From Schmidtea polychroa (Eukaryota): DNA of 64,000 bases. Positions 46,502 through 64,000 of the stretch are shown here, piece after piece. Position 1 is the first letter of the stretch. Every line of letters starts with the position of its first letter. Under the pieces are notes generated by a model. That model made no database searches. It saw nothing but the letters and a program-made list of their open reading frames with translations, and was not told where the DNA came from. Made by a program: the position numbers and the translations under genes. Location: positions 126,480,001-126,544,000 of the forward strand of contig CM097886.1 of NCBI GenBank assembly GCA_044892525.1, written 5' to 3'.

Positions 46502-48055
46502 TAGTGTTTCCAAATTACTCGATTTTTTGTAATACTCGGTTATTCGAGTATTACAAAAAAAATTGAGCGAGTACTCGGTTACTCGGTTATTATACTCGAA
46601 ACTAAAATTAAATAATTAAAGATTAAATAATTAAAGATAAATAATTAAAGAATTTAATTAAATTTTATTAAATATATCAAATATTTATTGTATATATAAC
46701 TTAGTATGTAACATAACCAGGTTCATTACGTTTTGAGTAAAAAGTTTCAATGACGGCTAGGTGAAAAGCGTGGTTATAGCATAATTGGCTTTCAGCTGAT
46801 ATGATTTTGCCGTATTTCACCATTACGTTTGCTCCATCGTGCGCGGAAGCAACTATGTCAGAATCAAAATCTACTCCGAATTCTTTCAATCGATTGAATA
46901 CTAGTTCTTCGGTTTTTTCAGATGTGCAGCTTTCTATAATCGGAACCAAACCAAGAACAATTTGACTCGAAATAGATTGCAGTGTGACATTAAGATATCT
47001 TCTTAAAGCGATATCAGTCCATTCATCGACCGTAATTGTAAATTTTTGTCCTGATTTAATTTTGGCTTCTAAATTATGCTTATTTTCAGCTTTTTTTTTC
47101 TTTGAAAAATCTTAGAACGTGTTTTCGAACAGTCGATACGCTGGTTGGCATTTTGTAATTACGACTGTTTACAAAGCAGCGAATTGCATCGCATTTGACA
47201 ATTGTACGAAATGGAATACCATCTTTTGTTGCGCATTTCGATATAATTTCCTCCAGTGATTCTCTTTCTCTACTGATAAATGTTAACATACCACTAACTT
47301 TAGGTATTTTGGATGTGCTTGGTCCTAGCGAATCATCAGCAGAATTTTGAACATTCCTTTTGGTTTGAGGTTTTAAACTGATATCATGTTTTTTTAAATG
47401 ATTTATCATTCCAGTTGTGGTACCACCTTTAATGGATATCTTATTCGTACATAAATTGACTTGACATTGCGCAATTTCTGATGATAATTTTTTGAAATAA
47501 TCCCAAACTTTCGATTTGTTTGTGGCCATTATGGATTAGAGAATATCTATAAATTATATTTTCGAAATTCGAACAAAATAAAAACAAACATAATTTTTAT
47601 ACACATAATTATTATTGTAATTAATAATTATACTTACGATTTGTGATCTGTGTTCTGTGATGAACGCGTAAAAGTGTAAAATATTTCACTGAATTAAATA
47701 CAATTTCTTAAACTAGAAAAAAAAATCTTACAGTTAAGAAAAATAGTATTTTTAATATTTAATGTTACTATAGCAACCAATTTAACAATGTCTGATTGTC
47801 TACTAATTGCTATTTTTTTCTTAGAAAAAGGAAAAAATTCTTATAATTTTGCTTGCTTAGTTAAGAAAAATAGAAAATATTGAATGTTACTATAGCAACC
47901 AATATCATAATTTCTGATATTTTTTGCTTGAAAAAAAAATTATATCTAAAGTAACTACTCGGTTACTCGACGAAATTACCCGGTTAACCGAATAATGGAA
48001 AATATCTGAAAATAGACGAGTACTCGGTTACTCGATTATTCGTTTGGAAACACTG
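46502..48055 (-). mobile_element. Internally deleted hAT (Ac/hobo-like) transposon, 1554 bp
   Basis: TIRs (T/C)AGTGTTTCCAAA; TACTCGGTTA subterminal repeats; perfect 8-bp TSD GTTTCCTA. Confidence 0.93.
46701..47529 (-). pseudogene. hAT transposase N-terminal half (BED finger, DEWT, DGA, CxxH), frameshifted near 47085 and truncated
   Basis: SKVWDYF..CQVNLC..TTTGMINHLKKH; TVDEWTD; HDGANVM; CYNHAFHLAV. Confidence 0.9.
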
Positions 48056-49292
48056 GTTTCCTATAATATAACAAAAAAATTAATAATCTTACATTATAGA
48101 AACATACATACTTACTTTGATTTCACGTGGATGTTCTCATTTAGAGTGCAGTCAGATACATCTTATACTATAGAAATCTGAAAAGTGGAAGAAAAATTAA
48201 AAAACTGCACACAAACACAAGACATACTAAAAAACACATACAAACTTTTGATTCATCTAAATGCACCGCTGGGAAACGTTTCTATAATTATTCTATTTTA
48301 AACAATTTTTAGATAAAAAAAAGATCACTGAAAATTTTTAAAAATATATTTTCAATGAAATTTTCAAGAGCAGATGAATTTGGTTCAATGTCTTTTCAAT
48401 CCATATTTGCTTTCCTGAAAGAAGCTCCTCATATTGAGCTCAGAAAAAAAAATCACAAAAATTATTTTATTTTTATTATTCGGGGATTTTTCCCAAAATG
48501 TTTTAGAAAAATACATATTTTTGGTAATTCATTTATTTAATTATAATTAAAAACATATCTAACTCACATTTTTTCGAAAATATTCCAAAATACTTGTCAT
48601 AAAATATCAAAAATCCCTGAAAATTATTTAAAAATAATTTATAATTATAATGTTGACTAAAAGTAAAATTTAAGAACTTGAATAATGATCTCATATCTAT
48701 ATGGATCAAAATTGAAGACTTAAAATTTACTTAAAAGTAAAATCTTGCCTGAAAGCCATTTCTAAAATGGCTAAAATAAATTTCCAAAAAACATTCATTA
48801 TTGTAAGCAATTCAGTGAATTGTTTTACACACCAACCACAACTATAGAGAATGTATCTCAGTGGTGTTTGGTGTAAACAGGTAAAAATTGAAACTAAAAT
48901 TCTCGGTAGCTACAGAAAAGACCTTTGTTAAAGGGAGGTTTTCGTTATATTGTGGGATAAATACTGTTGGGCTGAGCCGAAAGATAGCTGGGAAATCAGG
49001 TTAAACTTAACTAAAGAAAAATAAAAAAATAAAATAAATAGATCGAGGAATAAAATAGAATAGAACATAAGAAAAGTAATAATTAGAAAATAAGAATTAA
49101 AACAAAAAACATAAAAATAAGAACAATTAAATAGGACAATAGAATGACGAAAAATAACGTAAAAGGTAGTAGATAATAAGGAAATTAAGGAAAATAAATA
49201 AAAACATAATTTTAATAAAGAAAATAAGAAGAAATAACCCAAAAACAAGGAAAATAAATTAAATGAATAAAATAAGGCGGTACTCAATTCTG

Positions 49293-49325
49293 ATTGGTCC
49301 GCATAAACAAAAAATACCTATATAA
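49293..49325 (+). promoter_or_regulatory. Candidate Pol II promoter in the LTR (inverted CCAAT plus TATA)
   Basis: ATTGG at 49293, TATATAA at 49319, followed by a splice donor GTAAGA at 49375. Confidence 0.5.
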
Positions 49326-51557
49326 GTAAGCAGCAAATTCACTATAATCAATGTTAAAATCAAACCAATTATAGGTAAGAATAGTATTAACTATATGAAA
49401 TAAATGTTAAAATCAAACCAATTATAGGTACTCGACAATCAGGAAAACCAAACCATACTCAGCCAACTATTAGGGACAGTTCTATAGACTACTCATTCAT
49501 ATAACCGATTGGATCAGTTTATATTTCGGCTCAGCCTTTGGAACTACAGAATTTTTCAAATAATAAAGTAAGGATGTATTGCTATTATGAATTTGTTTTG
49601 AAGGATTTAAATATTTCTATTATATTAACCTAACTTTTGAATAAAAACTTCTCCATTCGGTTTCGATCTTTTAACGATTTTATGGTTCATAAATTAATTT
49701 ACAGGTCAATGAATTATAAATATTTATGTTATGTTTTGTCATCAAACGTATTGATTATGCTAAAATTATTTGTTTTGAGAAACGTGGAGTTGAGGAGACC
49801 CACGCCATGGTATGAGGAGCCTTCGGGAGCTCAGCCGGCGGGTGTGGATCTCTTCAATCACGCAGCTGACGTGGGCCGGAATGTGGGGGCTTCCTCACGG
49901 GTCCGTCGCTGAGGGAAATAAAATGCTGCAAGCACGAGTTTAAAGTGTAGAGGAAAATATTCCAATATTGAAAAGTAGAGCAAATCTGAATTGAAAATGA
50001 CTGAGGTGGCTACAAACTCTTCCAAGTATGAGAATCTCATTTTCTTAGGTACTATACTTTGAAATTTTCGTCTAACATTATGAATTAGGCTAGATCGACT
50101 ATTCACTTCCATGATACTCTATCATCTTGCGATAAATCCCCTTTTCGTCAAAATTCATGTCAATTTTCATCTTAACTGATAGAACCCAAGAGCTAATACA
50201 TTCACTCTGATGTTATGCAGTAGTATAGGAAGTATATATGGAAGATCACTGAACGCTTTTATTTACTAAAAAGATATTTGGAGGAGTACGTTATTGTTTT
50301 ATCAAAAGCGCCTTAACTCTTTCTGAAATCCCCAATAGCCGTAATCTGAAGTCCGTTCAGTAAAAGACCCTCTGGCCTCATAACACAGTAAACATACAAG
50401 GAGAATTTACAAAAGTATTTAATTAAAAAGATAAAATTTCGTAAAAAATTATTTATTTTCATTAACAAACTATAATTCTGAGTTACCAGTAGTAGGAGCA
50501 TAATAATCATTTCGGGAAGTTACCCTTGATAGATGTCGCCAAGATGAGGAAGGGCTTGAGCGAGTTGATAAAATCTCCACCGGACAGGATATTCTGATGT
50601 AAAGCGAGAGAGGCGGTATAATAAAAAATTTTCCAAATTTTCGTGTTTGCTGAGAACTAAACAGTAGATTCATATCGGAGCTGAATGATTAAATTCCAAA
50701 AATCGATGTAATCCAAGTTCGGCAGCATAGATAAAATATGAACATGTACAGTGAGAAGGTATAGTCTGTCTGTAAGTAGGCAGTGAATGAGATTGAGCAA
50801 TCACCTGCAGGTAGAATCACATGTACAATAGCGAACAATTGCATATGGCTTAGTCGATGTGATACTCATGCTGCCGGTACGGTAGCAGTGAATTCACAAT
50901 TTAATCATCGATAATGAGAAAGCCGAATCCCATTGCACACACATGGTGAACACCAACTTTTCTGAGAGATCTGAACACTAAACCAGTTGACGAGGAGGCA
51001 TGCAACAGATGGTTTGCATCATACGTGTCATACAACTAGAATAGAAATTAGACTAGTCTAACTTATCAGCAGTGTGATTGATCAAACAGAGCAAAGTCCA
51101 TTTGACTGTAAAGTTTTTGTAATCGCACGCATTTACAATTAACTCAAATTAGAGTAGCATAATCACGAATAAACTCAAATCTTTTAATTAATTTATTATC
51201 CCGATGTACTGCACCTGTCTGAATTGTTTTGCTGATAGTAAAGTCGAATCTGGTCACGCTCATGTATTGACAAGTTTTCTTAATCCGCAATAAAATTATC
51301 ATGTTGGGCAAAAGGGGGGGGGGAGAATTAATTTGTTAACCCGTAAACCTATAATTACTTTACGGATGTAATATCGATCAACAGGAAGTTTCGCTAACAG
51401 TCATTCCGTTTTCTTCTTGTCGGTCATTTCAACCCATGAACGTAATGTAGGGAATTTATGAGCCTTAATAAATAATTACGCTACTCTGATGGATTAGTAG
51501 AGCTAGCCAATTTTCGTCTTATCTCTATTATTCTTTCTTCATTATAGCTATCAAAAG

Positions 51558-52301
51558 ATGTTGCCAAGCACGAAATCGCCCATCAAACCCTGCTTCTCCT
51601 GCTCGGATAAAAATACCGTAATCCGAGAATTACAGGCCCAGATCGGTCGATATAAAAAGAAGATCGACGATCTGGAAGGTACATGGTTTAGCCCAGTACA
51701 AATGAAGGAAGTTCAAAAGAAATTGTACCGCAGTGAGCATTGTCGCGATGCTTTGATAAGCGAAAGTAGAGCTCAGCGTAGCCTAATCAAAGAGCAGTCC
51801 GAAGCTCTACATAAAGTTTATGTTCAAGCCGCTACAACCCGAAGGATTGTTAGTATTCCGATTAAAGAAGCGGACAATGTCTTCCCCGTTCACCATGAAC
51901 CTTCATTTAGTTCGCCACCCTTGTCGAAAAGATCTTGTCAGGAATGTGTGGAGGCCGACCTCTCCCCCAGGCCATCGGACGTACCTACTACCGGCACTGG
52001 CAAGGTATTGCATTCAGCCACGACGTCCTCGGCAATCTTGTCTGCCAACCCCTCAAAACCTAAGCGCCGCCAATTGTCCAGAGCGGAGCGTAAGAAGCGC
52101 CAACGTGAACGAGCAATTGTCAAACAACGAGAACTATCTGTCAACCACCCAAGTGCTTCGAATGATCCACCCGTAACGATCGATCTGACCGTAGGAATCC
52201 CAGGGCGAATCATATCTGCCGCTGGTGTGGCTTGGGAGGAGAATGCCTCCGAGTTTTTTGATCTAGATGAGCTATTGGCGGATGCGGGGTGGGAGAAGTG
52301 A
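51558..52301 (+). CDS. LTR-encoded 247-aa protein: CxxC, coiled coil, CxxC, basic NLS-like stretch, acidic aromatic C-terminus
   Basis: Intact ORF; acceptor TTCATTATAG at 51547; AATAAA at 52432 and 52437; conserved with many synonymous changes in 4356-5092. Function unknown. Confidence 0.85.
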   Translation: MLPSTKSPIKPCFSCSDKNTVIRELQAQIGRYKKKIDDLEGTWFSPVQMKEVQKKLYRSEHCRDALISESRAQRSLIKEQSEALHKVYVQAATTRRIVSIPIKEADNVFPVHHEPSFSSPPLSKRSCQECVEADLSPRPSDVPTTGTGKVLHSATTSSAILSANPSKPKRRQLSRAERKKRQRERAIVKQRELSVNHPSASNDPPVTIDLTVGIPGRIISAAGVAWEENASEFFDLDELLADAGWEK

Positions 52302-52880
52302 TGGCCGCAACACAATGCAACCGTGCAGGGTGCGAATGGACAAATAAACTATCTTGACTCTTTTTCTTCTTAATCTATTCTCCACCAAGTGTACTTGTTA
52401 TGTAGTGTATAATTCTCTAATGTATCATGATAATAAAATAAAGAAATTTCTGGTTAAATTTTAGTTGTTGTTTAAATCTAACTAGCTGTGGTAAAGATTC
52501 AGAGTAGTGTTCGCAAAGCGAGAGTAAAGTTTGAGTTCGAGAGGCAGTGGTCAATTTTGTGCCGAATAATGGGTCAGGGTAGAGGGAGAATCTGATGAGG
52601 TAAACAGACGTAAGTCCTTCCATCGGCCGTCAGAAAAGGGAAGTCGAGGCCTCAGTAAGGAGTAGTCCTAAGGTAGGGGCTCACCTGCTTACTGGAGTCT
52701 CGCCGACATAGCACATTTCCAACGTGAAGCAATTCGCGGGTGCTATGTTGGAGGGCAAGTTGTGCGGGGTCCTGCTCCGGGTTGACACGGGCGTATGTAG
52801 CGTAATGATATGGGCACGCACCCCCTAGACAAGGACGTAGATTGAGCAGAGTCAACCAAGCACTACCCCAGCATAATTTT

Positions 52881-52898
52881 TGGGGGCTCAGCCGGGAA
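52881..52898 (+). promoter_or_regulatory. Primer-binding site, tRNA-Pro-like
   Basis: TGGGGGCTCAGCCGGGAA vs canonical Pro PBS TGGGGGCTCGTCCGGGAT (15/18), 7 nt after the LTR-terminal CA. Confidence 0.75.
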
Positions 52899-53157
52899 TG
52901 TAATATGGAATTTCTGTCGAATAAGGTGAATTCACCGGGAGGATCGATGTCAATTAGTGGGCGAAAGCAAATTGACTAATGCCTATCGAATCCTATTAGA
53001 AATTACGATTAGAAAATAATAGAATTAAAGATATAAATAAAGTAAATAATCGGGAAATAGGATAAAAATAAAATAAATTATAACGAACTAAAAGAAAATG
53101 TTTGATGAAATAACCATTAATTAGCTGTATATTATTTTTTTTCTTTTCTCAATAGAC

Positions 53158-53643
53158 ATGACGGAATTCGCAGAACAGATGCAACAATTAATTAATTTCA
53201 TTAATATAGAAAACGACCCTATTAAAACACTCATACAAAAAGGAAAGCGAATCAACAGCATTTTACTCCAAGCAATCGGACATGCACCAGGCGTACCTAA
53301 TCACGTGTTATTGGCCGCAGGTTTAAGCCACCCAGATGAAAAGATAAATCACGAAACAGTATATCAATGGTACCTAAAACGACTAAAAAACCCGGCCCTA
53401 AATCTAGAATACGAGCGAATAAAAGATCAACTACATACAATATCAGAGGCAATCGAACAAAAGATACAAGAGAAACTCACCAAATTGCGAACCTGTCTGT
53501 CTTGCAATCTTCGCCCTATACGCATACTATTCTTACCTTGTGGACACCTCAGTCATTGTGAAGAGTGCGTGAAAGATCTGAAACGATGTGCAATATGTAA
53601 AAATGGGATAAAAGAAACCCATATGGTTTATTACGGTGATTAA
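53158..53643 (+). CDS. 161-aa protein with a C-terminal IAP-type C3HC4 RING finger and no BIR domain
   Basis: CLSC-X11-PCGHLSHCEEC-X6-CAIC at the extreme C-terminus; polypyrimidine tract and AG at 53154-55; AATAAA at 53759 then a T/GT-rich tract. Confidence 0.9.
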   Translation: MTEFAEQMQQLINFINIENDPIKTLIQKGKRINSILLQAIGHAPGVPNHVLLAAGLSHPDEKINHETVYQWYLKRLKNPALNLEYERIKDQLHTISEAIEQKIQEKLTKLRTCLSCNLRPIRILFLPCGHLSHCEECVKDLKRCAICKNGIKETHMVYYGD

Positions 53644-54200
53644 AACGACTAACCAGATGCAGTGATGTATATGCGCACTAAATTGATAAAAGACCTTTGA
53701 ATACGAATATATGTACTTTTAAGTGTGAAATAACTTTAATGTTTAATTTTAGTCTCAGAATAAATAAAAATTTTTTTTGTTGTTATGAATTAGATATTTT
53801 ATCTCTTTTAATTACATCTTTGGTTATGAGATCGAATGGAGAAGAATAAAACTAACGTGGAATTAGTCCCAATATAGGCTGCAGGGGTACAAACCGAGCC
53901 ACCTTCGGGCGGTACGTTTTATTGCAAGAACCCGTTGGGAGGGGATAACTGATCAACCCAAGTAAGAAGCGTAGGGCGGGGTACCATCGCATATGATGAG
54001 AAGTTTCTGCGGCATGACTGATCACCATACCAATGTGGAAACGGATCATCGCGATCGTCGTGCGTTTCGAGCAAGGGGGGAAAGGGGAAACACTCTCAAG
54101 CGGTAAAGATTAAGTCGACAAATTAAAAGTAGACAGAGAAAATGGTAATCTAGGGTAAAAGAAGAAAAGAGAAGTAGAAGCATGCAGAGCGGGGAATATT

Positions 54201-54570
54201 AAGATCGAGTTGTTGAATAGTCCAACCGATCAGAAGGAAGAAGATTGAGCTGTTGAATAGTGCCAGCCAGTCGTAAGATCGAGTTGTTGAATAGTCCAAC
54301 CGATCAGAAGGAAGAAGATTGAGCTGTTGAATAGTGCCAGCCAGTCGTAAGATCGAGTTGTTGAATAGTCCAACCGATCAGAAGGAAGAAGATTGAGCTG
54401 TTGAATAGTGCCAGCCAGTCGTAAGATCGAGTTGTTGAATAGTCCAACCGATCAGAAGGAAGAAGATTGAGCTGTTGAATAGTGCCAGCCAGTCGTAAGA
54501 TCGAGTTGTTGAATAGTCCAACCGATCAGAAGGAAGAAGATTGAGCTGTTGAATAGTGCCAGCCAGTCGT
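54201..54570 (+). repeat. Five identical 74-bp units in the retroelement leader; each unit is a 40+34-bp dimer
   Basis: AAGATCGAGTTGTTGAATAGTCCAACCGATCAGAAGGAAG + AAGATTGAGCTGTTGAATAGTGCCAGCCAGTCGT at 54201, 54275, 54349, 54423 and 54497. Confidence 0.97.
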
Positions 54571-55590
54571 AAAGGCCTAGAAAAATGAGAAATAGCAGTC
54601 AAGCTACAATGAGATAATATTTAAATGAATAGAGAAAGGGAATATTAAAGCTAGCTAGAAACAAATTGAATATAATTACGAAAATTTGAGTTTAGAGAGG
54701 AGATAAACGAGCTCGGGGAAAAGATAATAAAATTATAATGAAAAAGGAAGGAGAAGAAGAAAATGAATTAAAGAAATAATGAGAAAATAAAGAATAGGTG
54801 AAATGGAGATAATGAGTAGAAGAAGAAAGTAACTAGCTAGTTAAAGGGATCCCAGTGAAGTAGAGAAACTCTACGGAATTTTTTTTGGGTAAACCGGGAA
54901 AATGTATTTTTATCGGTTCCAGAGTAGAACCGAGTGGGATAATAGTAAATATGAAAAGTAAAACAGCGACAACAGCGCAAAGGAATAAGAAAACGAAGGG
55001 GGGTAATAAGCAGAGACCGACAACGACCTATTTTTACTATAATTGATAACGAATAGATAACTATTACGACCTTATAGATAATTGTTACTACCCCATATAG
55101 ATAATTTAAAATCGACGGAAAATACGGGCTGATGGGAAATTATAACCCGCAGAAAGGATTTCACAAAAGATAGGGGAAGCAAACAGAAACCTAAAAGGTG
55201 TCTGTTTTTGAATGTTGTAGAAAGAATGATGAAGTCGTGTAAGCAAATGCAACACGAGATCATTTTTTCATTTTAGATATCAAGCCAATCCAGTCAACCA
55301 AGACAATCCAGAACCTGCACAAAAGGAATTCGAAGAAATCGACAATCAACCAAGGATAAATCCATTCAGAACCCGCACCGAGAGACACAGCAACCGGAAG
55401 ACTCCAGAACGGAAGAAGATACAGATAGCGACATCTCCAACTTCGAACGAATCATCGATATATTCAACCTCATAGTATTAGCAGCCATCTGCCAAGGATT
55501 AGTAAATCTCCTCAGGATCTCAGTAGCAGATTCATACAGAATATTTATCGAAGGAAACACAATCAGAACCGAACTCGTCCAATTCAATAG

Positions 55591-56840
55591 CCGCTAATTA
55601 CCAAGAAACGCAAGAAAGGAATCACGGATAAACCCAATCTTAGATCTTCAAGTAAGCCAGGAGACGTATTATTTTCAGGAGACGAATTACAACAACTCAA
55701 AAGAGGACGATCTATTAAACATCAAAGAGGAATATCACAAGGAGCAAGAAGAACCAATCAAGTACCCATATTTGACCAAGAAAATCTCGGATATACCCCT
55801 AGTCGATCTCGAAGTAGAGAAAGTCTGTCCGATATCACTTATAGTTTAGCAACGTCAACCGAGGAATTATCAGCCCAAAGTTTAGTCACATCGTTAGACA
55901 ATTTAAAAGAAACAGACGAACCTAGAACACCAATCATGACGAATGTCGTATAAACCGATGAGTATAAAGAGAAGTTCAGAGGAGAACCGTTCAATGGAAA
56001 TGCAAACAAGTTAGCAACGTTCATAACTAATTTTGAAGTTTATATCACTGTGTGTGGATGGACACCCGAAGCAATTAGTAAAAGGATGCCGTTGTTTCTG
56101 TGCGATAGCGCATTAGAGGTATATTTAGAAGCTAAAGAGAGAGATACGAAATTAGAGAAGTGGGAAGATATCAAAACATTCCTGAAGAAAACTTTCGGAG
56201 CTAGCAAACCAATAAATCAAGCACTCGGCGAACTAGCAAATAGGAAACAAATGGCAAATGAATCTATTACGTTATATGCCAGCGAATTGCGGAGATTGGC
56301 AAAGAAAGCAATGAATGGGAAATTACCAGAAGAAAATTTGATCGGTTATTTCATAGAGGGATTACGCCGAGAAGAAGTAAGAGCCTCAGTAGGTTGTCAA
56401 ATGTGCAAAACATTAGAGGAAGCCATAGATTGGGCTACAAGATGCGAGCTCCACCTTCCAGCTCAAATGAATATTATGCAAGAGGAGGGAAGGATAGCGA
56501 CAGCAATAGCGAAAGCGGATAACGGAGATAACAACAATCAAGAACCGAAAATGAATCAATTTATACCAGGAGCGCACCAAATTTTCAAACCACCACAAGG
56601 ACGATCAAATGGGAATAATGGTAATCGTAACAACCCGAATAATGAGAACAATTTCAATAATCGACGAAATATGAACGATAACAAGCAGTGCCGAACATGC
56701 GGTAAACCAGGACACTGGGACAGAGATTGCTATAGAAATTCAAATTGTAATCGTTTAGACGGCGTGGACATACCGAAAATGTATGCCAATTGAGAGGTTG
56801 TTTTAACTGTGGTCAGCCAGGTCACATCTCCAGAGATTGC
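55591..56840 (+). CDS. gag: Gag (capsid plus 3 CCHC zinc knuckles); in-frame TAA at 55951 and a 1-bp deletion at ~56755
   Basis: EPFNGNANKLATFITNFEVY capsid start; knuckles CRTCGKPGHWDRDC (56689), CNR[C]RRRGHTENVC (56746, restored by +G) and CFNCGQPGHISRDC (56799). Confidence 0.9.
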
Positions 56841-59800
56841 CGAGAAAGGGGCCAACAACAACGACCACCACAGCGAAATAATAATTATATAGCGAATCCG
56901 CAACGACAAAGTAACCCTAACGAAGGAAAACAAATGAACGTTATGCAGGAAATTTCGCAGATGAAACAGATGATGCAACAAATGATGAGACCAAGACAAG
57001 AATCAGCACCCCAACAAACCCAGAATATACGTATGATGAGGAGTACCGAAAATCTCAACAATTATGAAGTGCATCAACATGTACAAGAATGGCAAAGGCT
57101 ACAGGCCGAGGAAGAGAGGATAAAACAAGAACGCAACCAACAACGACAAGAACAACCATTGCGAATAAATATGATGAAGTTAGTAAAAGACATGAAGAGC
57201 CAGTATTGCTACAATTACGGGAAAAACCCAAGGGTAATACCCATGACTGAACCAGAAAAGGTAAAAGAAACAACAACGGAAATGAAAACAGAGAATTCAA
57301 CCACGATTTTAAAAGGAAACCAGAGAATTCAGAAAATATTCTGGAAAAAGATAAAAGATAAAATCGAAAAAGAACATAATAAAGCGAAAACCGCGACAGA
57401 AGATGAAAATAACAAGAGCAAGGAACAAACCAGTCAACTAAACCACCAAATGCTACAAGAATTAGAATCAGAAGAAACAACAATATTCGAAAGAAAGAAA
57501 CTAAAGAGAGTACCAAGGATGAGAAACTTGCAAATCAATATGATGAAAAGGATAAAAGATGTAGCATCGTCAGACGAAGAAGAAGACTATGTAAGTAGTT
57601 TGGGTGGAGAAATACTACAGCTAAATGAAATAAGCGAACCTCCAAAAGGGGAAATCAAAGAGGAAGAAAGCGAAAGCGAGATAACCAGTGGAAGTGAAGA
57701 CGAAGATGTCGAAATAAAGTTGAGAAAAGCAGGGGAGGAAGCGATAAAACAGGTAGCCGAAATACTCCCAGTAGTAGTGAGGAACCAAGAGTTCATCGAC
57801 GTAATTCCATTCAGGCGATTCGTGCAAAAAGTGATGAAATTGGAAAGAAACGAGAAAGATCTAATACCAAACGAGGAAAAATCAATTATAAAAAAGTATA
57901 TGGAAAAAATGAAGCAGGCCGATACCACGCGGTATGTAATAAAAATTGGAACGAGTAGAGGACTTGAAAGAATGTGGATAAAAAATACAGTCACCGACGA
58001 ACTTTTCGATTGGATACGAGAACATTTGGGAAGTTCGAGAAAGAAAGAATATCTGTATCAATACCAAGGTGAACAGATCAAACCAGATATGCACTTAGTA
58101 GATGCACTGATATGGCCAGGAGAAACGCAAATACTGAAGTTGCATAAAGAAAAACAACCAGCCAACCTTTACGATTGGGCTAAAGATGCCAAGGCAGAAT
58201 ATGATTTTAATATCAAATTGAAATTAGAACAAATAAAACAATGTACTCTGAGACGAAACCTGGATAAGCTGATCAAACAAATTCAAGAACAAGTAGAAGA
58301 CAACTGGGATTTACTCATCACCAGACGAGCCCCAGCCATGTACGAACTAATGAGCCGGTTGCGAGATACAGAAATGCTCCGAATGAGTGATTGGAGAACC
58401 ATAAATTTGATCCACAAATATGGAAGGTTAAAAGAAACCCAGCCACAGAGGTTGGAAATAACCATATGGTTACCGAACGAAGAGAAACGACGAATAAAAA
58501 TGAGCAATCAGAGTACAGTAGATGACTTGGTATCAAAAATAAACCAAGAGATAACGGAAAAGGTACGTAGCGAAAGTAGTGATGGTATGGTGGATGATGT
58601 AGTCATGATGTACGATAAAATAATATTACGAGCGGAGGACGACACCTCGTTAAGCGAAATGGGTATGTGGGACAATCATCAGATAATCAGGATAGTACCA
58701 ATGGATGAATTCCGAACAAGAGATGTAACCTATCAAAAAGAAATACGAGACCGGATGAAAACGTTATATCAAAAATCTACAGAAATAATTGAAATCCACC
58801 AACAATGGTTAAAAGAAAAAGAGCTACAAGGAAAAATCACGAAACTAAGTACCAGATCCTGCAGACGGACTCCATGGGAAAGAGTGTGGAATACAGAAAA
58901 TAAGGAATGGGAAATCAGGAAAGGGATCTTCGTAGAAACAGACATTGGTGAGACAGAAAGTGAATCGGAGGAAGAAGAAGAGGAACCTCCAGAATATGAA
59001 GAGGAAGCAAGGGAACAGACATCAGATGACGAAGGCGAGACGGATGTCACATCAGAAAGCGAAAATGAAGCGAGACATATTCATGCAATGAGGAAAAAGG
59101 AACGTGAATATGCTGATATGGACGGCGAGGAAGCAATAGAAGCAAGAGAGCGGGAAGAGAAAGAAAGATATAAACAATTAGGCGATATCTTAGCAATGGG
59201 AGCGAAAAATCAAAAACGCCAAGTAGTAGCGTTGGCTAACATCATCTTAAAGACATCAGAGAACATCCACAATCTGAGAGGAATGGCAAAGGCAATAGAG
59301 GAATACCGGCAATATAATGAATGGTATCCAGAACAGCTAGAACAAATTATTCGAAAATGGAGAAATCAGGAATGGGCACAAGACACCCAGGAGAGGTATC
59401 ACATCCGAATCAAGTATCCGGACAAGAGCATCGAGGAACTAGAGGTACATCCAACAACAAAAATTAGAGAATTAAAAAAGAAATTAGCATATGAAACTCC
59501 ATTCCATCTGCAACTATTCGGAAAATCACTAGACGATAATGCAGACGTCGGGATAACACCCATGAGATTGGAAGAGACAAATGTATTAACAATGGCAGAA
59601 ACGTTGGGGAAACCGTTAAAAAGGAAAAGTAAAATTACTAAACCAACAAAAGGCAGTTTGAGTACTCCAAGTCCGAACAAAGCACCAAGTAAATCTAATG
59701 AAACTGAAGAAGTTGAAGAGATAATCCTGGAAGATAGTGACGATGAACCAGGAGAAAGATCACCGCTATTAGTGAGATGGCCGACAGGAGCCGAAATGTG

Positions 59801-62800
59801 GACTAATAACCAGCCATCAACGAGTTATCAACAACCAACGAAACTGAACATCAAAGAAATCATCGACAATACTACGGAAACCGAAACGGATGAACAATTC
59901 CAGAAGCAAAGAGAACCAACGAAAGTAACACCAGAAGGTCAAACCGACAAAATAATAGACGAATGGAATGAGTGGCTAAGAAATAACGATAGCTCATTAC
60001 CCAGAACGGATAACGAAAGAAATCCGAATTACGAAAATACCAGAGAAGCCGGAACGATGATGGAAAAACGGGCAAAAGGAAGACCTAAGAAACAAGGAGA
60101 AAAGTCTGAGTTCAAAACCAAAGAACAATTAAAGCAAGAACAAGGGCAAGTTCGATTAGAAAAATTGGATAAAATAGTATGGGATCTAAAGGAAGCCCAA
60201 CCAACGATCGAAAGAGGAGAAAAATGGATACGTGAATTGTTAAAAGATATGTTAATAATAACAAACCCACAACTTAGACGTTTGTGGCAACGGAAAGTAG
60301 CCAGTACGGAAGCTAGACAATTATGGCACACCATTTCGGGGATAATCCCAAAGTTAATCAAAGAGAAAACGAAAACCACCAAAACGGATTGGGACGAAAC
60401 GAAGAAAGTGATTGAACAGCTCACGACAAATGCAAATGATGACGAACATCATCTAGTGGTAATCACGTATTTGATGTATAATTTGATGGGACTAGCTGCG
60501 AGGAAAATACCAAATAAACAGTTTGCAAATCATGTGGAAATGACCGTTTCAATCATAGAGAATACTATTGAACCACATATTATTCGTGCAGGAGGATGGA
60601 AAAGACTGATACAAGCGCCACGAAAAAATGAGCAAGAAAGGTCGATGCAAGTTAGATTGAAAAAACTGTTAAATGAACTAGAATGGGAACTACCGATGAA
60701 AGATCCCGCAAGCAGAAAAGCATCAATAAATTCGTTAATGATGACTATGATGATATGGATGTTGTGCACAAGTGGAGCAACAGGTTTTACCATCTACGAT
60801 TGTGATAATATGATAATGAGAGATAAATACTCATTGAGAGACATAGAAGAATGCAGACAAGCCTCACCCAACAAATTGGACATCGTGAGAACAAAAGTTA
60901 CTTACCATGTATATCAAGAATCAGATTTCATCAGAACGCAAGCAAGGGAATGCGTAGTATCAAAAAAGGTACTCGCATATTACTGTGGACAATATTCGTA
61001 TTCGACTCTTATACTACCCGGTCTGGATAAAGAAATCGTATCAATACAACGAGAGGACTGTAAAGAGCTATTTAGAACCGGAGCGCTAAAAATGCATAAC
61101 GGAGTGACGATTCACGGACAAACTGGAATGATTAAAACCGAAAGTGTTTACGTATCCGGAAAAGTAAAATCATCAGATGGGTCATGTAACGGAGGTACGT
61201 ATACGATCCGAGGCGAGGTAATATCGGGAGTGGTAGTGATCGAGTCTTATACGGTCGAATTAAAAGAATACGAAGCGCAATTTGACGCAAATAATTATCA
61301 AATGAAGACCAACCCAGCGTGTAAAGCTACAGAAAACGTATGCAGGACAGGAGTATCAACTATAATCTATGATGCTAATACCCAAAAATGCCGACTCCAA
61401 CTGTTAAAAAGTGCTTTGTTCAATGAAGTAAAAGGAGAAATTTACGAGAACGAGAACGACGAGGATGGAAACGACAGAGTGAGAATGCGAAATGGAAAAC
61501 CAATGCCACCATCTCCCAGAGAAAAGAGACTTTCAACGCAGAAGACACCAACAGCATTAATCACAGACGATCCAGATCTAGGTATGAGATTTATCAAAGA
61601 GAAAGAAACCACCAAATGTGACAGTATAGTATATAAAACCAATTACGCAGGTATCTACATGTCGAGACAAATAATCGATAGAGCAGTGGGAAAGATAGCA
61701 ACGGAGGACGTAAAACTATACTTATATGCAAATAATAAAATGGATTTTCTATTTCATCGCGGACAAACGACCTTACAAAAAGTATATTACGATCTGATAC
61801 AAAACGATTGTTCATTGAATAAAGAAATATTGAAAACAAAGCTAGCTATTGCGATAACGCACCCCGATAACACGATGCCATCACTCCCACTACCAGACGG
61901 ACATTTTGGTAGAATGGTAGGAGAAGTGATGTACACATACCAGTGTACCAAGACGTATGCACGAATGCCAGAAAAATCCATACTACCCGAAAAGAGATGT
62001 GCAAATGAATTAGAAATTCGTTATAAAGGACAAAATCGATTCGTCCAACCAGTCACTAGAATCATGAATCCAGTGGGTTTCTACCCAAATCTCTTTAACT
62101 GTTCTAATGCATACGGACCTTTGTATGAAAGACCCGATGGGAAATGGATGATGTTACCGGGAAAAACCATATCCGAGGAACCCAAGAAATTTGGATTAAT
62201 AGAACTCGCCACAGAGCTGGATTTCAAACCTATAGACGTGTCAAACGGTGGTATGTATTCCCCAGAAGATCTAGAAACAGCACGACTTAACGTACTCTTC
62301 CCAGCCAGACGAGAATCCATTTTGTCTAATATGGTAACAATAACTGGGGGCACAAACTATCAATCAGGCCCGAATTACGAGCTGCTATTATCGCCAGACC
62401 ATTTTCAACAAGCTACGTCAAACATGATGAAAGCCATGTGGGGAAGATTCTTAGTTTTTGGACAAATGATGGCCGGGATATTAGGGATCATACTCATAAT
62501 TCAGATAGTTAGAGTAATACTAACACAAATGTTAGCTTGTTTCGATATATACAAGCGGGAAAAGAAAGTTAATTGGAAAATGATAGTAGGTTTCTTACCA
62601 TTTTTAGCTAAAACCATGGTATTACATGGTCACTCAAAAGACATTCATCGGATAAAGCGATTGATTAAAATATTAACAAAGATTAAAGGAACCGACGAGG
62701 AAGTAGGCAGACGATTCCGGAAAGTAATGTACGACGAAACAACAAGACGACAATTGAAAAAGAATAAGCCAAAATTCTTGGACCGATTTAGAAGCCAATC

Positions 62801-64000
62801 ATCTAACAGCGATAGTGACGACGATGATGACGGGAACGATAAATGTCTTTATCCAAACAGAAACCCAAACGAAAAACCAATGGAAACGGCACCATATTGG
62901 GAAAAGGAAAAGACAAACACCTGGATCGCCAATGGAAGCTATATACCACCGGATATCGTGGGACCACAAGCAGCTTTGACCATGACACAAAATATGTATC
63001 CGCAATTACCGAGTCAACCCGGTATGCATTATATGCCGACACGACGTACCAAAAGTGTAGATCAAGCAGATGACGTAAGAACAATCGCAGCGATGAGTCT
63101 ACCTGGAGGTCCAGCAGTGACAGTCATGATCCAAATCAATGGTAAAGAAACCAATGCTATGATAGACACAGGAGCTAATGTATCAGCGATAGCGATTAAT
63201 CAAATCCCCAGTAAACACTGGAAAGATATCGAATCAACAACAATTCACATCATAGCATGTAGTAAAGAAATAGTGGACGTGGTCGGAAGATGGTGGACTA
63301 CTTTGAGATACCAGGACAACGAAATTGAAACGTATTTGGCAGTAATACCAAAACTTAGCGTACCATGCATAATCGGAACGGATTTGATGCCAGAATTGTT
63401 AAAAGAAGTCGTAATTGACTTAACCACCATGTGTCTAAAAGACAAAACCGGTAGAATATGCAAAATGAATGCAGTAATCAGATGTCCAGAAAAAATAATA
63501 GTACCAGCAAAATCGCAGATGATTTGTCAGATAAAAGTGGATACGGGTATGGAAGGAGAAGTTATCTTTGAACCAAGCAAGTCATTCGAAAAGCGACGAG
63601 AGTTACCACTCGCAAGGGAAATAATAACAATAAACCAAGAAGGAGTGATACCGCTCAACATCACGAATTTCGAAGAAGAAGACAAAATCATTTATGAGAA
63701 CGAAAAATTGGGAAGATTGACCCCAATGATGGACATAGAATTACCGAGAGTGACCAACGAGATGATCAAAGATGATGAATTATGGACAATAGATAGTATG
63801 TTGTTGACGAATGATGAAAAGAAAAAATTGCACCGTTTGTTGGTGGAATATAAAGATATATTCGCCATCTCAGATTTAGATTTGGGTACATGCGATGTTA
63901 CCCTACATGCAATACCCCTCATAGATGAAACTCCAATTGCATTAAGACCATACAAGCTAGCAGAAATGCAAAAAGAAATAGCCGAAGCAGAAGTACAAAA
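56757..64000 (+). CDS. Stop-free polyprotein frame (~2,414 codons, 3'-open): NC, Ubl x3, Bcl-2-like, signal, glycoprotein, TM, PR, dUTPase-like spacer, RT start
   Basis: Translated by hand in the frame with codon starts divisible by 3 without meeting a stop. The ORF track lists no terminated ORF in this frame, as expected for an ORF running off the end. Confidence 0.92.
57930..58149 (+). other. Ubiquitin/SUMO-like domain A in the polyprotein
   Basis: YVIKI..ERMWI..TDELFDWIREHLG..YLYQYQGEQIKPDMHLVDALIWPGETQILKL follows the beta-grasp pattern. Confidence 0.55.
58449..58700 (+). other. Ubiquitin-like domain B in the polyprotein
   Basis: LEITIWLPNEEKRRIKMSNQSTVDDLVSKINQEI...VMMYDKIILRAEDDTSLSEMGMWDNHQIIRIV parallels ubiquitin along its length. 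Confidence 0.7.
59394..59600 (+). other. Ubiquitin-like domain C in the polyprotein
   Basis: HIRIKYPDKSIEELEVHPTTKIRELKKKL..LQLFGKSLDD vs ubiquitin LEVEPSDTIENVKAKI..LIFAGKQLED. Confidence 0.72.
60153..60615 (+). other. Bcl-2-like helical domain in the polyprotein
   Basis: Central hydrophobic helix HLVVITYLMYNLMGLAA, then SIIENTIEPHIIRAGGWKRLI resembling BH2 (Bcl-xL: YLNDHLEPWIQENGGWDTFV). Confidence 0.65.
60720..62640 (+). CDS. env: Envelope glycoprotein segment, chuvirus-G/gB-type (class III-like): internal signal peptide, ~550-aa ectodomain with 14 Cys, furin site, TM
   Basis: Signal SLMMTMMIWMLCTSGATG|FTIYDC; YYCGQYS; DGSCNGG; REKR at 61518; GRMVGEVMYTYQC; CANELEI..FVQPVTRIM; NCSNAYGPLY; GGMYSPEDL; TM FLVFGQMMAGILGIILIIQIVRVIL. 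Confidence 0.85.
63114..64000 (+). CDS. pol: Pol start: retropepsin, dUTPase-like spacer, N-terminus of RT
   Basis: IQINGKETNAMIDTGANVS (DTG at 63165), CIIGTDLM; then KDIFAISDLDLG..HAIPLIDETPIALRPYKL, typical of the Ty3/gypsy pre-RT region. Confidence 0.93.

Follow-up and report, generated by a model that had tools for sequence, protein, structure and literature searches.

Among described mobile elements, the closest to the one reported here are the Burro elements, which exceed 30 kb and carry an open reading frame (ORF) of 4,873 or 5,140 aa (Arkhipova and Yushenova 2019, PMC6431247). This ORF comprises Gag, a Ubi2/SUMO-like domain, BCL2, an envelope protein (Env) in frame between gag and pol, ankyrins, BIR and MATH; accessory ORFs accompany it, and it was proposed that Burro is a provirus and a "tinkerer" of apoptosis and ubiquitination (PMC6431247). 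BURRO1 is transcribed and PIWI-silenced according to passages of PMC8532177, and those from PMC11410931 and PMC13238120 contain nothing further on Burro structure. Six Schmidtea elements (Smed_errantivirus_1-6) with a gB-type env and the flatworm order GAG-ENV-POL are described in passages of Chary and Hayashi (2026, PMC13524379), where env capture in Ty3/gypsy is argued to be ancient. Here we analyse a giant element that starts within a window of 64,000 nucleotides from Schmidtea polychroa (assembly GCA_044892525.1, contig CM097886.1, positions 126,480,001 to 126,544,000, forward strand). Coordinates are those of the window, in which all features of the element lie on the plus strand; L001 and L002 are sequence stretches downstream of it, and other L numbers are stretches with related copies. 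An earlier, sequence-only reading of the window pointed out that giant planarian Burro elements carry extra domains such as BCL2; these are indeed published, and more extensively than it assumed (PMC6431247). We consider it probable that the element is a young, envelope-bearing Ty3/gypsy element of the Burro group, in which gag, env and pol share a single giant frame (broken in gag in this copy) and seven conserved accessory genes are present, one of them in the long terminal repeat (LTR). Each of the seven is likely made from its own spliced mRNA, and as a set they are predicted to act on the ubiquitin and cell-death signalling of the host.

The element and its polyprotein

From LTR to LTR the element measures 29,798 bp. 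The 5' LTR (48965 to 52873; 3,909 bp, TG...CA) is preceded by the target-site duplication ATAC (48961 to 48964), which is repeated directly after the 3' LTR. This 3' partner, found 25.9 kb downstream and beyond the window (L002 1854-5762), carries a second copy of the LTR gene and differs from the 5' LTR at 3 positions (99.92% identity); the giant element is recently inserted. A primer-binding site complementary to the 3' end of host tRNA-Pro follows the 5' LTR (52881 to 52897), and its complement is present in host tRNA-Pro(TGG) genes. The LTR ends, the target-site duplication and the tRNA primer site are those of Ty3/gypsy (Metaviridae) elements, as is the order of protease, reverse transcriptase, RNase H and integrase, with profile matches to RVP, RVT_1, RT_RNaseH/_2, Integrase_H2C2, rve, Retrotrans_gag and Ty3_capsid. 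Exact matches to the LTR ends number 167 in the genome, and the LTR gene and the Bcl-2-like region each have 150 copies or more, the best 150 of which were scored. Host tRNA-Pro(TGG) genes were also seen as a tandem array with a period of 475 bp (L061; C1 near 130.9 Mb), a pattern with 2,190 matches genome-wide.

In the sibling copies one frame encodes Gag, Env, protease, reverse transcriptase, RNase H, integrase and ankyrins. Pfam detects the Gag capsid, CCHC knuckles, a Monjiviricetes-type fusion glycoprotein and the protease within the window, and reverse transcriptase, RNase H, integrase and ankyrins beyond it. Thus the Gag, fusogen-like glycoprotein and Pol of the sequence-only reading stand, whereas its placing of Gag in one frame with the rest does not hold for the window copy. 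Here gag (55591 to 56793; capsid 56086-56370, first CCHC knuckle 56686-56730) is broken twice, by a premature stop at 55951-55953 and by a frameshift within 56751-56793. Both sites are read through in all nine siblings that cover gag, among 10 sibling stretches, one of which has a different frameshift further downstream. Sibling open frames reach 4,732 aa, and that of the window copy 4,345 aa after the two breaks. Because the sibling gag frames read through and about 70 of the best 150 matches to the Bcl-2-like region (hand count) sit in open frames of at least 4,700 aa, the family is young and largely intact, and the window copy is defective or mis-assembled at two points. As it reads, the polyprotein of this copy cannot be made intact from one frame; the copy may have been moved by its siblings in trans, or have broken after insertion.

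Env (60732 to 62560; PF24664, E 1e-70) consists of an internal signal-like stretch (60732-60785), a class III/gB-type ectodomain and a membrane anchor from 62442. The ratio of nonsynonymous to synonymous substitution rates (dN/dS) is 0-0.08 in five copies, and this purifying selection shows use, not infectivity. An aspartic protease (63123 to 63398; PF00077, E 4e-9) and the start of pol (63399 to 64000) follow, and the frame continues past the window with reverse transcriptase, RNase H, integrase, ankyrins, a second signal-like stretch and a C-terminal membrane stretch (L001 1001-6788). The part behind integrase and ankyrins (L001 5775-6788), which comprises this signal-like stretch, some 250 residues and an anchor in the membrane, is under purifying selection and is possibly a second surface protein. 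The polyprotein would thread the endoplasmic reticulum membrane, with Gag, the ubiquitin-like (Ubl) and the Bcl-2-like parts cytosolic, then the internal signal, a luminal Env, the anchor, a cytosolic Pol-ankyrin part and a second luminal part, and it would be cut by its own protease and by signal peptidase.

Just before gag, a conserved protein-like frame of about 60 codons with conservative changes (55400-55600) ends at the start of the gag frame, and it has no ATG in most copies; the gag frame itself varies at third positions over the 115 codons that precede its first ATG. A 38-nt intron near 55239-55276 was considered as the source of the gag start and rejected, as the frame downstream of it soon runs into a stop and is not conserved among copies (by eye).

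The sequence-only reading also assigned three Ubl domains and a Bcl-2-like domain to the polyprotein. Ubl candidate 1 (57936 to 58166) has a strand-strand-helix-strand pattern in a low-confidence model only (pLDDT ~40), and the other two are weakly supported. Candidate 2 (58446 to 58706), SUMO/Rad60-like, has Rad60-SLD/ubiquitin neighbours (PF11976/PF00240) in the Atlas at 0.91 (recognition 2890) and weak Pfam beta-grasp matches; candidate 3 (59400 to 59606) matches Pfam ubiquitin at E 0.09 and designed ubiquitins in the PDB at E 0.18-0.59. A low-confidence model of candidates 1 and 2 (pLDDT 42) gave no significant fold match in Foldseek, and neither candidate gave a significant sequence match. 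Candidate 2 takes the place of the Ubi2/SUMO-like domain upstream of BCL2 in Burro, and an assignment of this kind appears to have moderate support here.

The Bcl-2-like helical domain (60153 to 60695) contains a GGW motif, which we take to be BH2-type, and lies directly before env. It scores 15 bits in Pfam (E 0.03), under the cut-off of 31.4, and the argument for it is an indirect one, its collinearity with a domain of a sister family that scores 29-32 bits. Its dN/dS is 0.02-0.09 (5 copies). No match was found among 1.84 billion representative proteins, and in a PDB profile search Bcl-2-like protein 1 ranked last (E 1.9). The AlphaFold model of the region is of low confidence (pLDDT 49); with it, Foldseek returned no significant match, its top TM-scores (0.3-0.4) being to Bcl-2 family chains, and VIA-align returned generic helical bundles, with Bcl-2 chains absent from the top 50. 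Elsewhere in the genome, a cluster at C4 89.9-90.8 Mb (L067-L072) contains seven or more strong Bcl-2 matches (68 bits) that are almost identical to one another, likely a host gene expansion.

Accessory genes and their expression

The sequence-only reading had placed the LTR start at 48965 and an ORF inside the LTR, and both are confirmed. The ORF (51558 to 52301) encodes 247 aa with a CxxC motif, a coiled coil, a basic stretch and an acidic-aromatic C-terminus, and a YAG stands 8-10 nt before its ATG. By hand count, 133 of the best 150 matches, a set biased to good copies, are free of internal stops. In all 18 diverged copies (dS 0.26-1.56) dN/dS is 0.08-0.16, and among 11 close copies, with few changes, it is 0.07-0.70. 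Within the LTR, changes over this ORF concentrate at third positions, and 50020-51465 is barely alignable. Strong purifying selection acts on the LTR gene. The putative acceptor AG is kept in 16 of 16 alignable copies among the 18 diverged ones, and an AATAAA at 52437 to 52442, likely the poly(A) signal for both the LTR gene and the genomic RNA, in 15 of the 18. The protein has no Pfam family, a protein search retained none of 972 candidates (lengths 135-433 only), and its best Atlas neighbour (0.84) belongs to unnamed clusters with low recognition. A distant version lies ahead of the RING gene in the sister family (E 5e-4). From its basic stretch and acidic-aromatic tail the protein is predicted to be a nuclear regulator; it also has an IDLT motif, presumably SUMO-binding.

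The leader carries a separate IAP-type RING gene, as the sequence-only reading had claimed, of 161 aa and without a BIR domain (53158 to 53643), with a YAG 2 nt before its ATG. It matches Pfam zf-C3HC4_3 at E 7e-11, and its top PDB matches are the RINGs of BIRC3, BIRC2, BIRC7 and XIAP. In the three most diverged copies dN/dS is 0.10-0.24, and an AG precedes the ATG in 33 of 33 exact-match starts. Behind the polyprotein follow five more genes with spacers of 55-201 nt (L001 6949 to L002 1628), which encode a protein of 119 aa with no assigned family, a full-length TRAF of 462 aa, two coiled-coil proteins of 351 and 237 aa, and a predicted membrane protein of 214 aa. Of these, the TRAF gene starts at L001 7394, the coiled-coil genes at L001 8984 and L002 215, and the membrane gene at L002 984. 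Eight of nine fetched stretches could be aligned here (L059 was excluded as unaligned, and L006, L007 and L048 where the region is absent); four of the genes have a dN/dS of 0.02-0.32, and the membrane gene one of 0.22-0.64. All seven accessory genes are thus shown to be under purifying selection.

In the sister family the accessory proteins are 24-31% identical to these, the gene order is the same, and there is an extra BIR-RING IAP. That gene is complete, with 392 aa (L064 4659-5834), and the genome holds at least 150 BIR matches, mostly in frames of 392-393 aa. BIR genes spaced 29 kb apart were considered as another LTR gene and rejected, since they belong to the 3' accessory genes of an element arranged in tandem.

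A YAG at most 4 nt from the ATG is found in five of the seven genes here and in seven of eight in the sister family, compared with a rate of 10-16% over all ATGs (p 0.001 for five of seven at a background of 0.15). The distances from acceptor to ATG in the seven genes are 1, 1, 2, 2, 2, 4 and 10 nt. A[AT]TAAA follows the stop within 120 nt in all seven genes (one by eye) and within 200 nt in five of eight sister genes. The pattern of YAG, ATG and poly(A) signal looks like the marks of separately processed mRNAs, and its recurrence in the sister family suggests that the accessory mRNAs may be spliced or trans-spliced; the signals would fit both cis-splicing from the LTR leader and spliced leader (SL) trans-splicing. 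Each gene would then consist of a YAG acceptor, its ATG and ORF, and an A[AT]TAAA. The most likely option is that alternative acceptors receive a short LTR leader by cis-splicing, much as in complex retroviruses; the LTR gene, lying in U3, would then close the 3' row.

The candidate donor is a GTAAG at 52610, which as GTRAG is kept in 27 of 28 LTRs. It opens a conserved structured block, likely U5 (block 2, 52607 to 52800; z -2.4). Another conserved structured RNA block, with a long hairpin and a second stem (block 1, 49783 to 49911; z -3.1), shows changes on both sides in 7 of 49 pairs, above 500 of 500 shuffles, in 11 distinct sequences that are related and from which the structure itself was derived. 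Neither block belongs to an Rfam family (two chance-level matches only). Block 1 also holds a second stretch like the tRNA-Pro primer site (49827-49839), and the first bases of the LTR (48967-48978) are complementary to the primer-site motif, an arrangement that resembles the bipartite primer site of Ty3.

Several points weigh against the reading that we favour. The candidate donor lies upstream of the primer site, and typical retroviral donors lie elsewhere; the block around it is conserved throughout, so its conservation is non-specific. For two of the seven genes, which offer several ATGs, the start codon was chosen with knowledge of where the AG lies, and as the two families share orthologues, their YAGs do not count as separate tests. 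The strict flatworm motif UUNYAG, given in passages of PMC12582326, fits only three of the seven acceptors. A[AT]TAAA is a frequent word where DNA is rich in A and T, with AATAAA in 80 of 354 (23%) host windows of 130 nt, and the making of genomic RNA would require transcription to pass the internal poly(A) signals. A polypurine tract is not evident upstream of the 3' LTR, and the Bcl-2 and Ubl assignments, falling under curated cut-offs, are weakly supported.

A rather unlikely alternative, but the one that survives best, is that the accessory genes form an operon, with one precursor cut at internal poly(A) sites and the host SL added to each gene. SL trans-splicing is reported in Schmidtea, and the spacers of 55-201 nt, which hold A[AT]TAAA, YAG and ATG in this order, are close to the median intercistronic distance of 99 bp in Schistosoma operons (both in passages of PMC12582326); moreover, introns of 17-25 kb would be required if the 3' genes were reached by cis-splicing. 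However, the conserved donor-like GTAAG argues for cis-splicing, the LTR gene lies 2.8 kb past the preceding ORF, and flatworm SLs end in an ATG (PMC12582326, in part) that would be out of frame at the acceptor-to-ATG distances given above. We regard as unlikely a wider proposal, in which Burro-type elements would be the complex retroviruses of flatworms, with seven or eight anti-death and ubiquitin genes arranged as an SL-trans-spliced, host-style operon and an LTR transactivator on a swappable LTR/RING module. Quite improbable is that the genes have their own promoters or are reached by reinitiation, with the YAG as a start context and not a splice site. TGTA/TATA-like words do stand ahead of several starts, one gene of each family has AAG instead of YAG, and no spliced retrocopies of the RING gene were found among the genome matches, a result that is uninformative as to splicing; but pyrimidine tracts and an invariant AG persist across subfamilies whose flanks vary in length, and spacers down to 55-85 nt leave little room for promoters.

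Cis-splicing from the LTR leader and the operon can be told apart at defined places, as the predicted acceptors are exact test sites in planarian RNA data. If the operon were true, it would be a mode of retroelement expression that the searched literature did not turn up.

Integrity of the element and exchange of the LTR/RING block

The LTR/RING block and gag-pol occur in the same order in nine of 10 close copies (the tenth carries a deletion at this place) and in all eight copies with a diverged LTR (L077-L084). In these, near-identical gag (98-100%) is joined to LTR/RING proteins that are only 66-72% identical, and LTR/RING modules appear to have been exchanged between subfamilies near a 74-bp tandem repeat of about five copies (54200 to 54572). 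Since the order is kept in all eight exchanged-block copies, the LTR/RING block is part of the element and not a chance neighbour. That the two blocks are unrelated neighbours or a misassembly, as their exchangeability might hint, is scarcely credible and is excluded by the paired LTRs with their target-site duplication, the primer site right after the LTR and the order kept in these copies and in the sister family.

As to the DNA, the LTR/RING blocks of L077-L084 are ~70-80% identical to 48965-54200 of the window despite the near-identical gag. L039 and L045 are mosaic alike, with dS of 1.5 in the LTR gene and 0.11 in the Ubl region. Outside the element, broken hAT transposase-like ORFs with a BED zinc finger lie upstream on the minus strand (46701-47535), and a fragment like family A DNA polymerase lies downstream of the 3' LTR (L002 9114-9575), both by eye.

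Comparison with known systems

With Burro/GYPSM1 of Schmidtea mediterranea and the Burro-like element of Dugesia tigrina, this multi-copy planarian element shares a length of ~30 kb, multi-kb LTRs and, in its siblings, a single ORF in the range of ~4,700-5,100 aa (~4,800 aa is typical of Burro) with env in frame between gag and pol. It also shares the CCHC Gag, the Ubi/SUMO-like region, protease to integrase, ankyrins, tandem repeats, accessory ORFs and MATH/TRAF, and its candidate Bcl-2-like domain would correspond to the BCL2 of Burro. The assignment is by layout, as set beside the published descriptions of Burro. MATH lies inside the polyprotein in Burro1 or in an upstream ORF in D. tigrina, whereas here it lies in a separate full-length TRAF gene downstream of pol. 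Burro1 also has a BIR; here Pfam found none in the scanned ORFs, the separate BIR-RING gene being in the sister family, and because of this we file the element as Burro-like and not as Burro1.

The Smed_errantivirus_1-6 elements are likewise planarian, several of them multi-copy, with the order GAG-ENV-POL and a gB-type class III env; in the passages of PMC13524379 they span 14.5-18 kb, with no LTR or tRNA assigned and no accessory genes mentioned. By eye, env is nearest to that of Smed_errantivirus_5 (about half of some 60 residues), and the sister family resembles Smed_errantivirus_6. The polyprotein architecture is therefore that of an already published group (PMC6431247; passages of PMC13524379), an outcome that the sequence-only reading had itself named as a refutation. 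The literature searched yielded no account of the LTR gene and the selection on it, of the seven accessory genes with their splice-like signals, of the full-length TRAF gene or of the exchange of the LTR/RING module. In the text of section 7 of PMC6431247 there is no word of a gene encoded in the LTR, of accessory genes under selection or of signals for splicing, although its figure 2A, which draws ORFs, and other Burro papers may already show LTR ORFs.

Complex retroviruses carry accessory genes that overlap the LTR, such as MMTV sag, HIV nef and foamy virus tas/bet. The sequence-only reading had called the element complex-retrovirus-like, and selection on the seven accessory genes together with their splice-acceptor-like sites speaks for this; the rest of that comparison we infer. 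The likeness would lie in accessory genes 3' of pol and env, one of them in U3, and in putatively spliced mRNAs. The differences lie in the Ty3/gypsy Pol, the class III env in frame before pol and the host-derived TRAF, IAP and Bcl-2-like cargo, with no sequence relation shown. If our reading is correct, a Ty3/gypsy element with a selected TRAF, IAP-type ligases, a Bcl-2-like domain and an LTR regulator made from spliced messages would have converged on complex retroviruses, in a host whose stem cells and cell turnover make it a model of regeneration.

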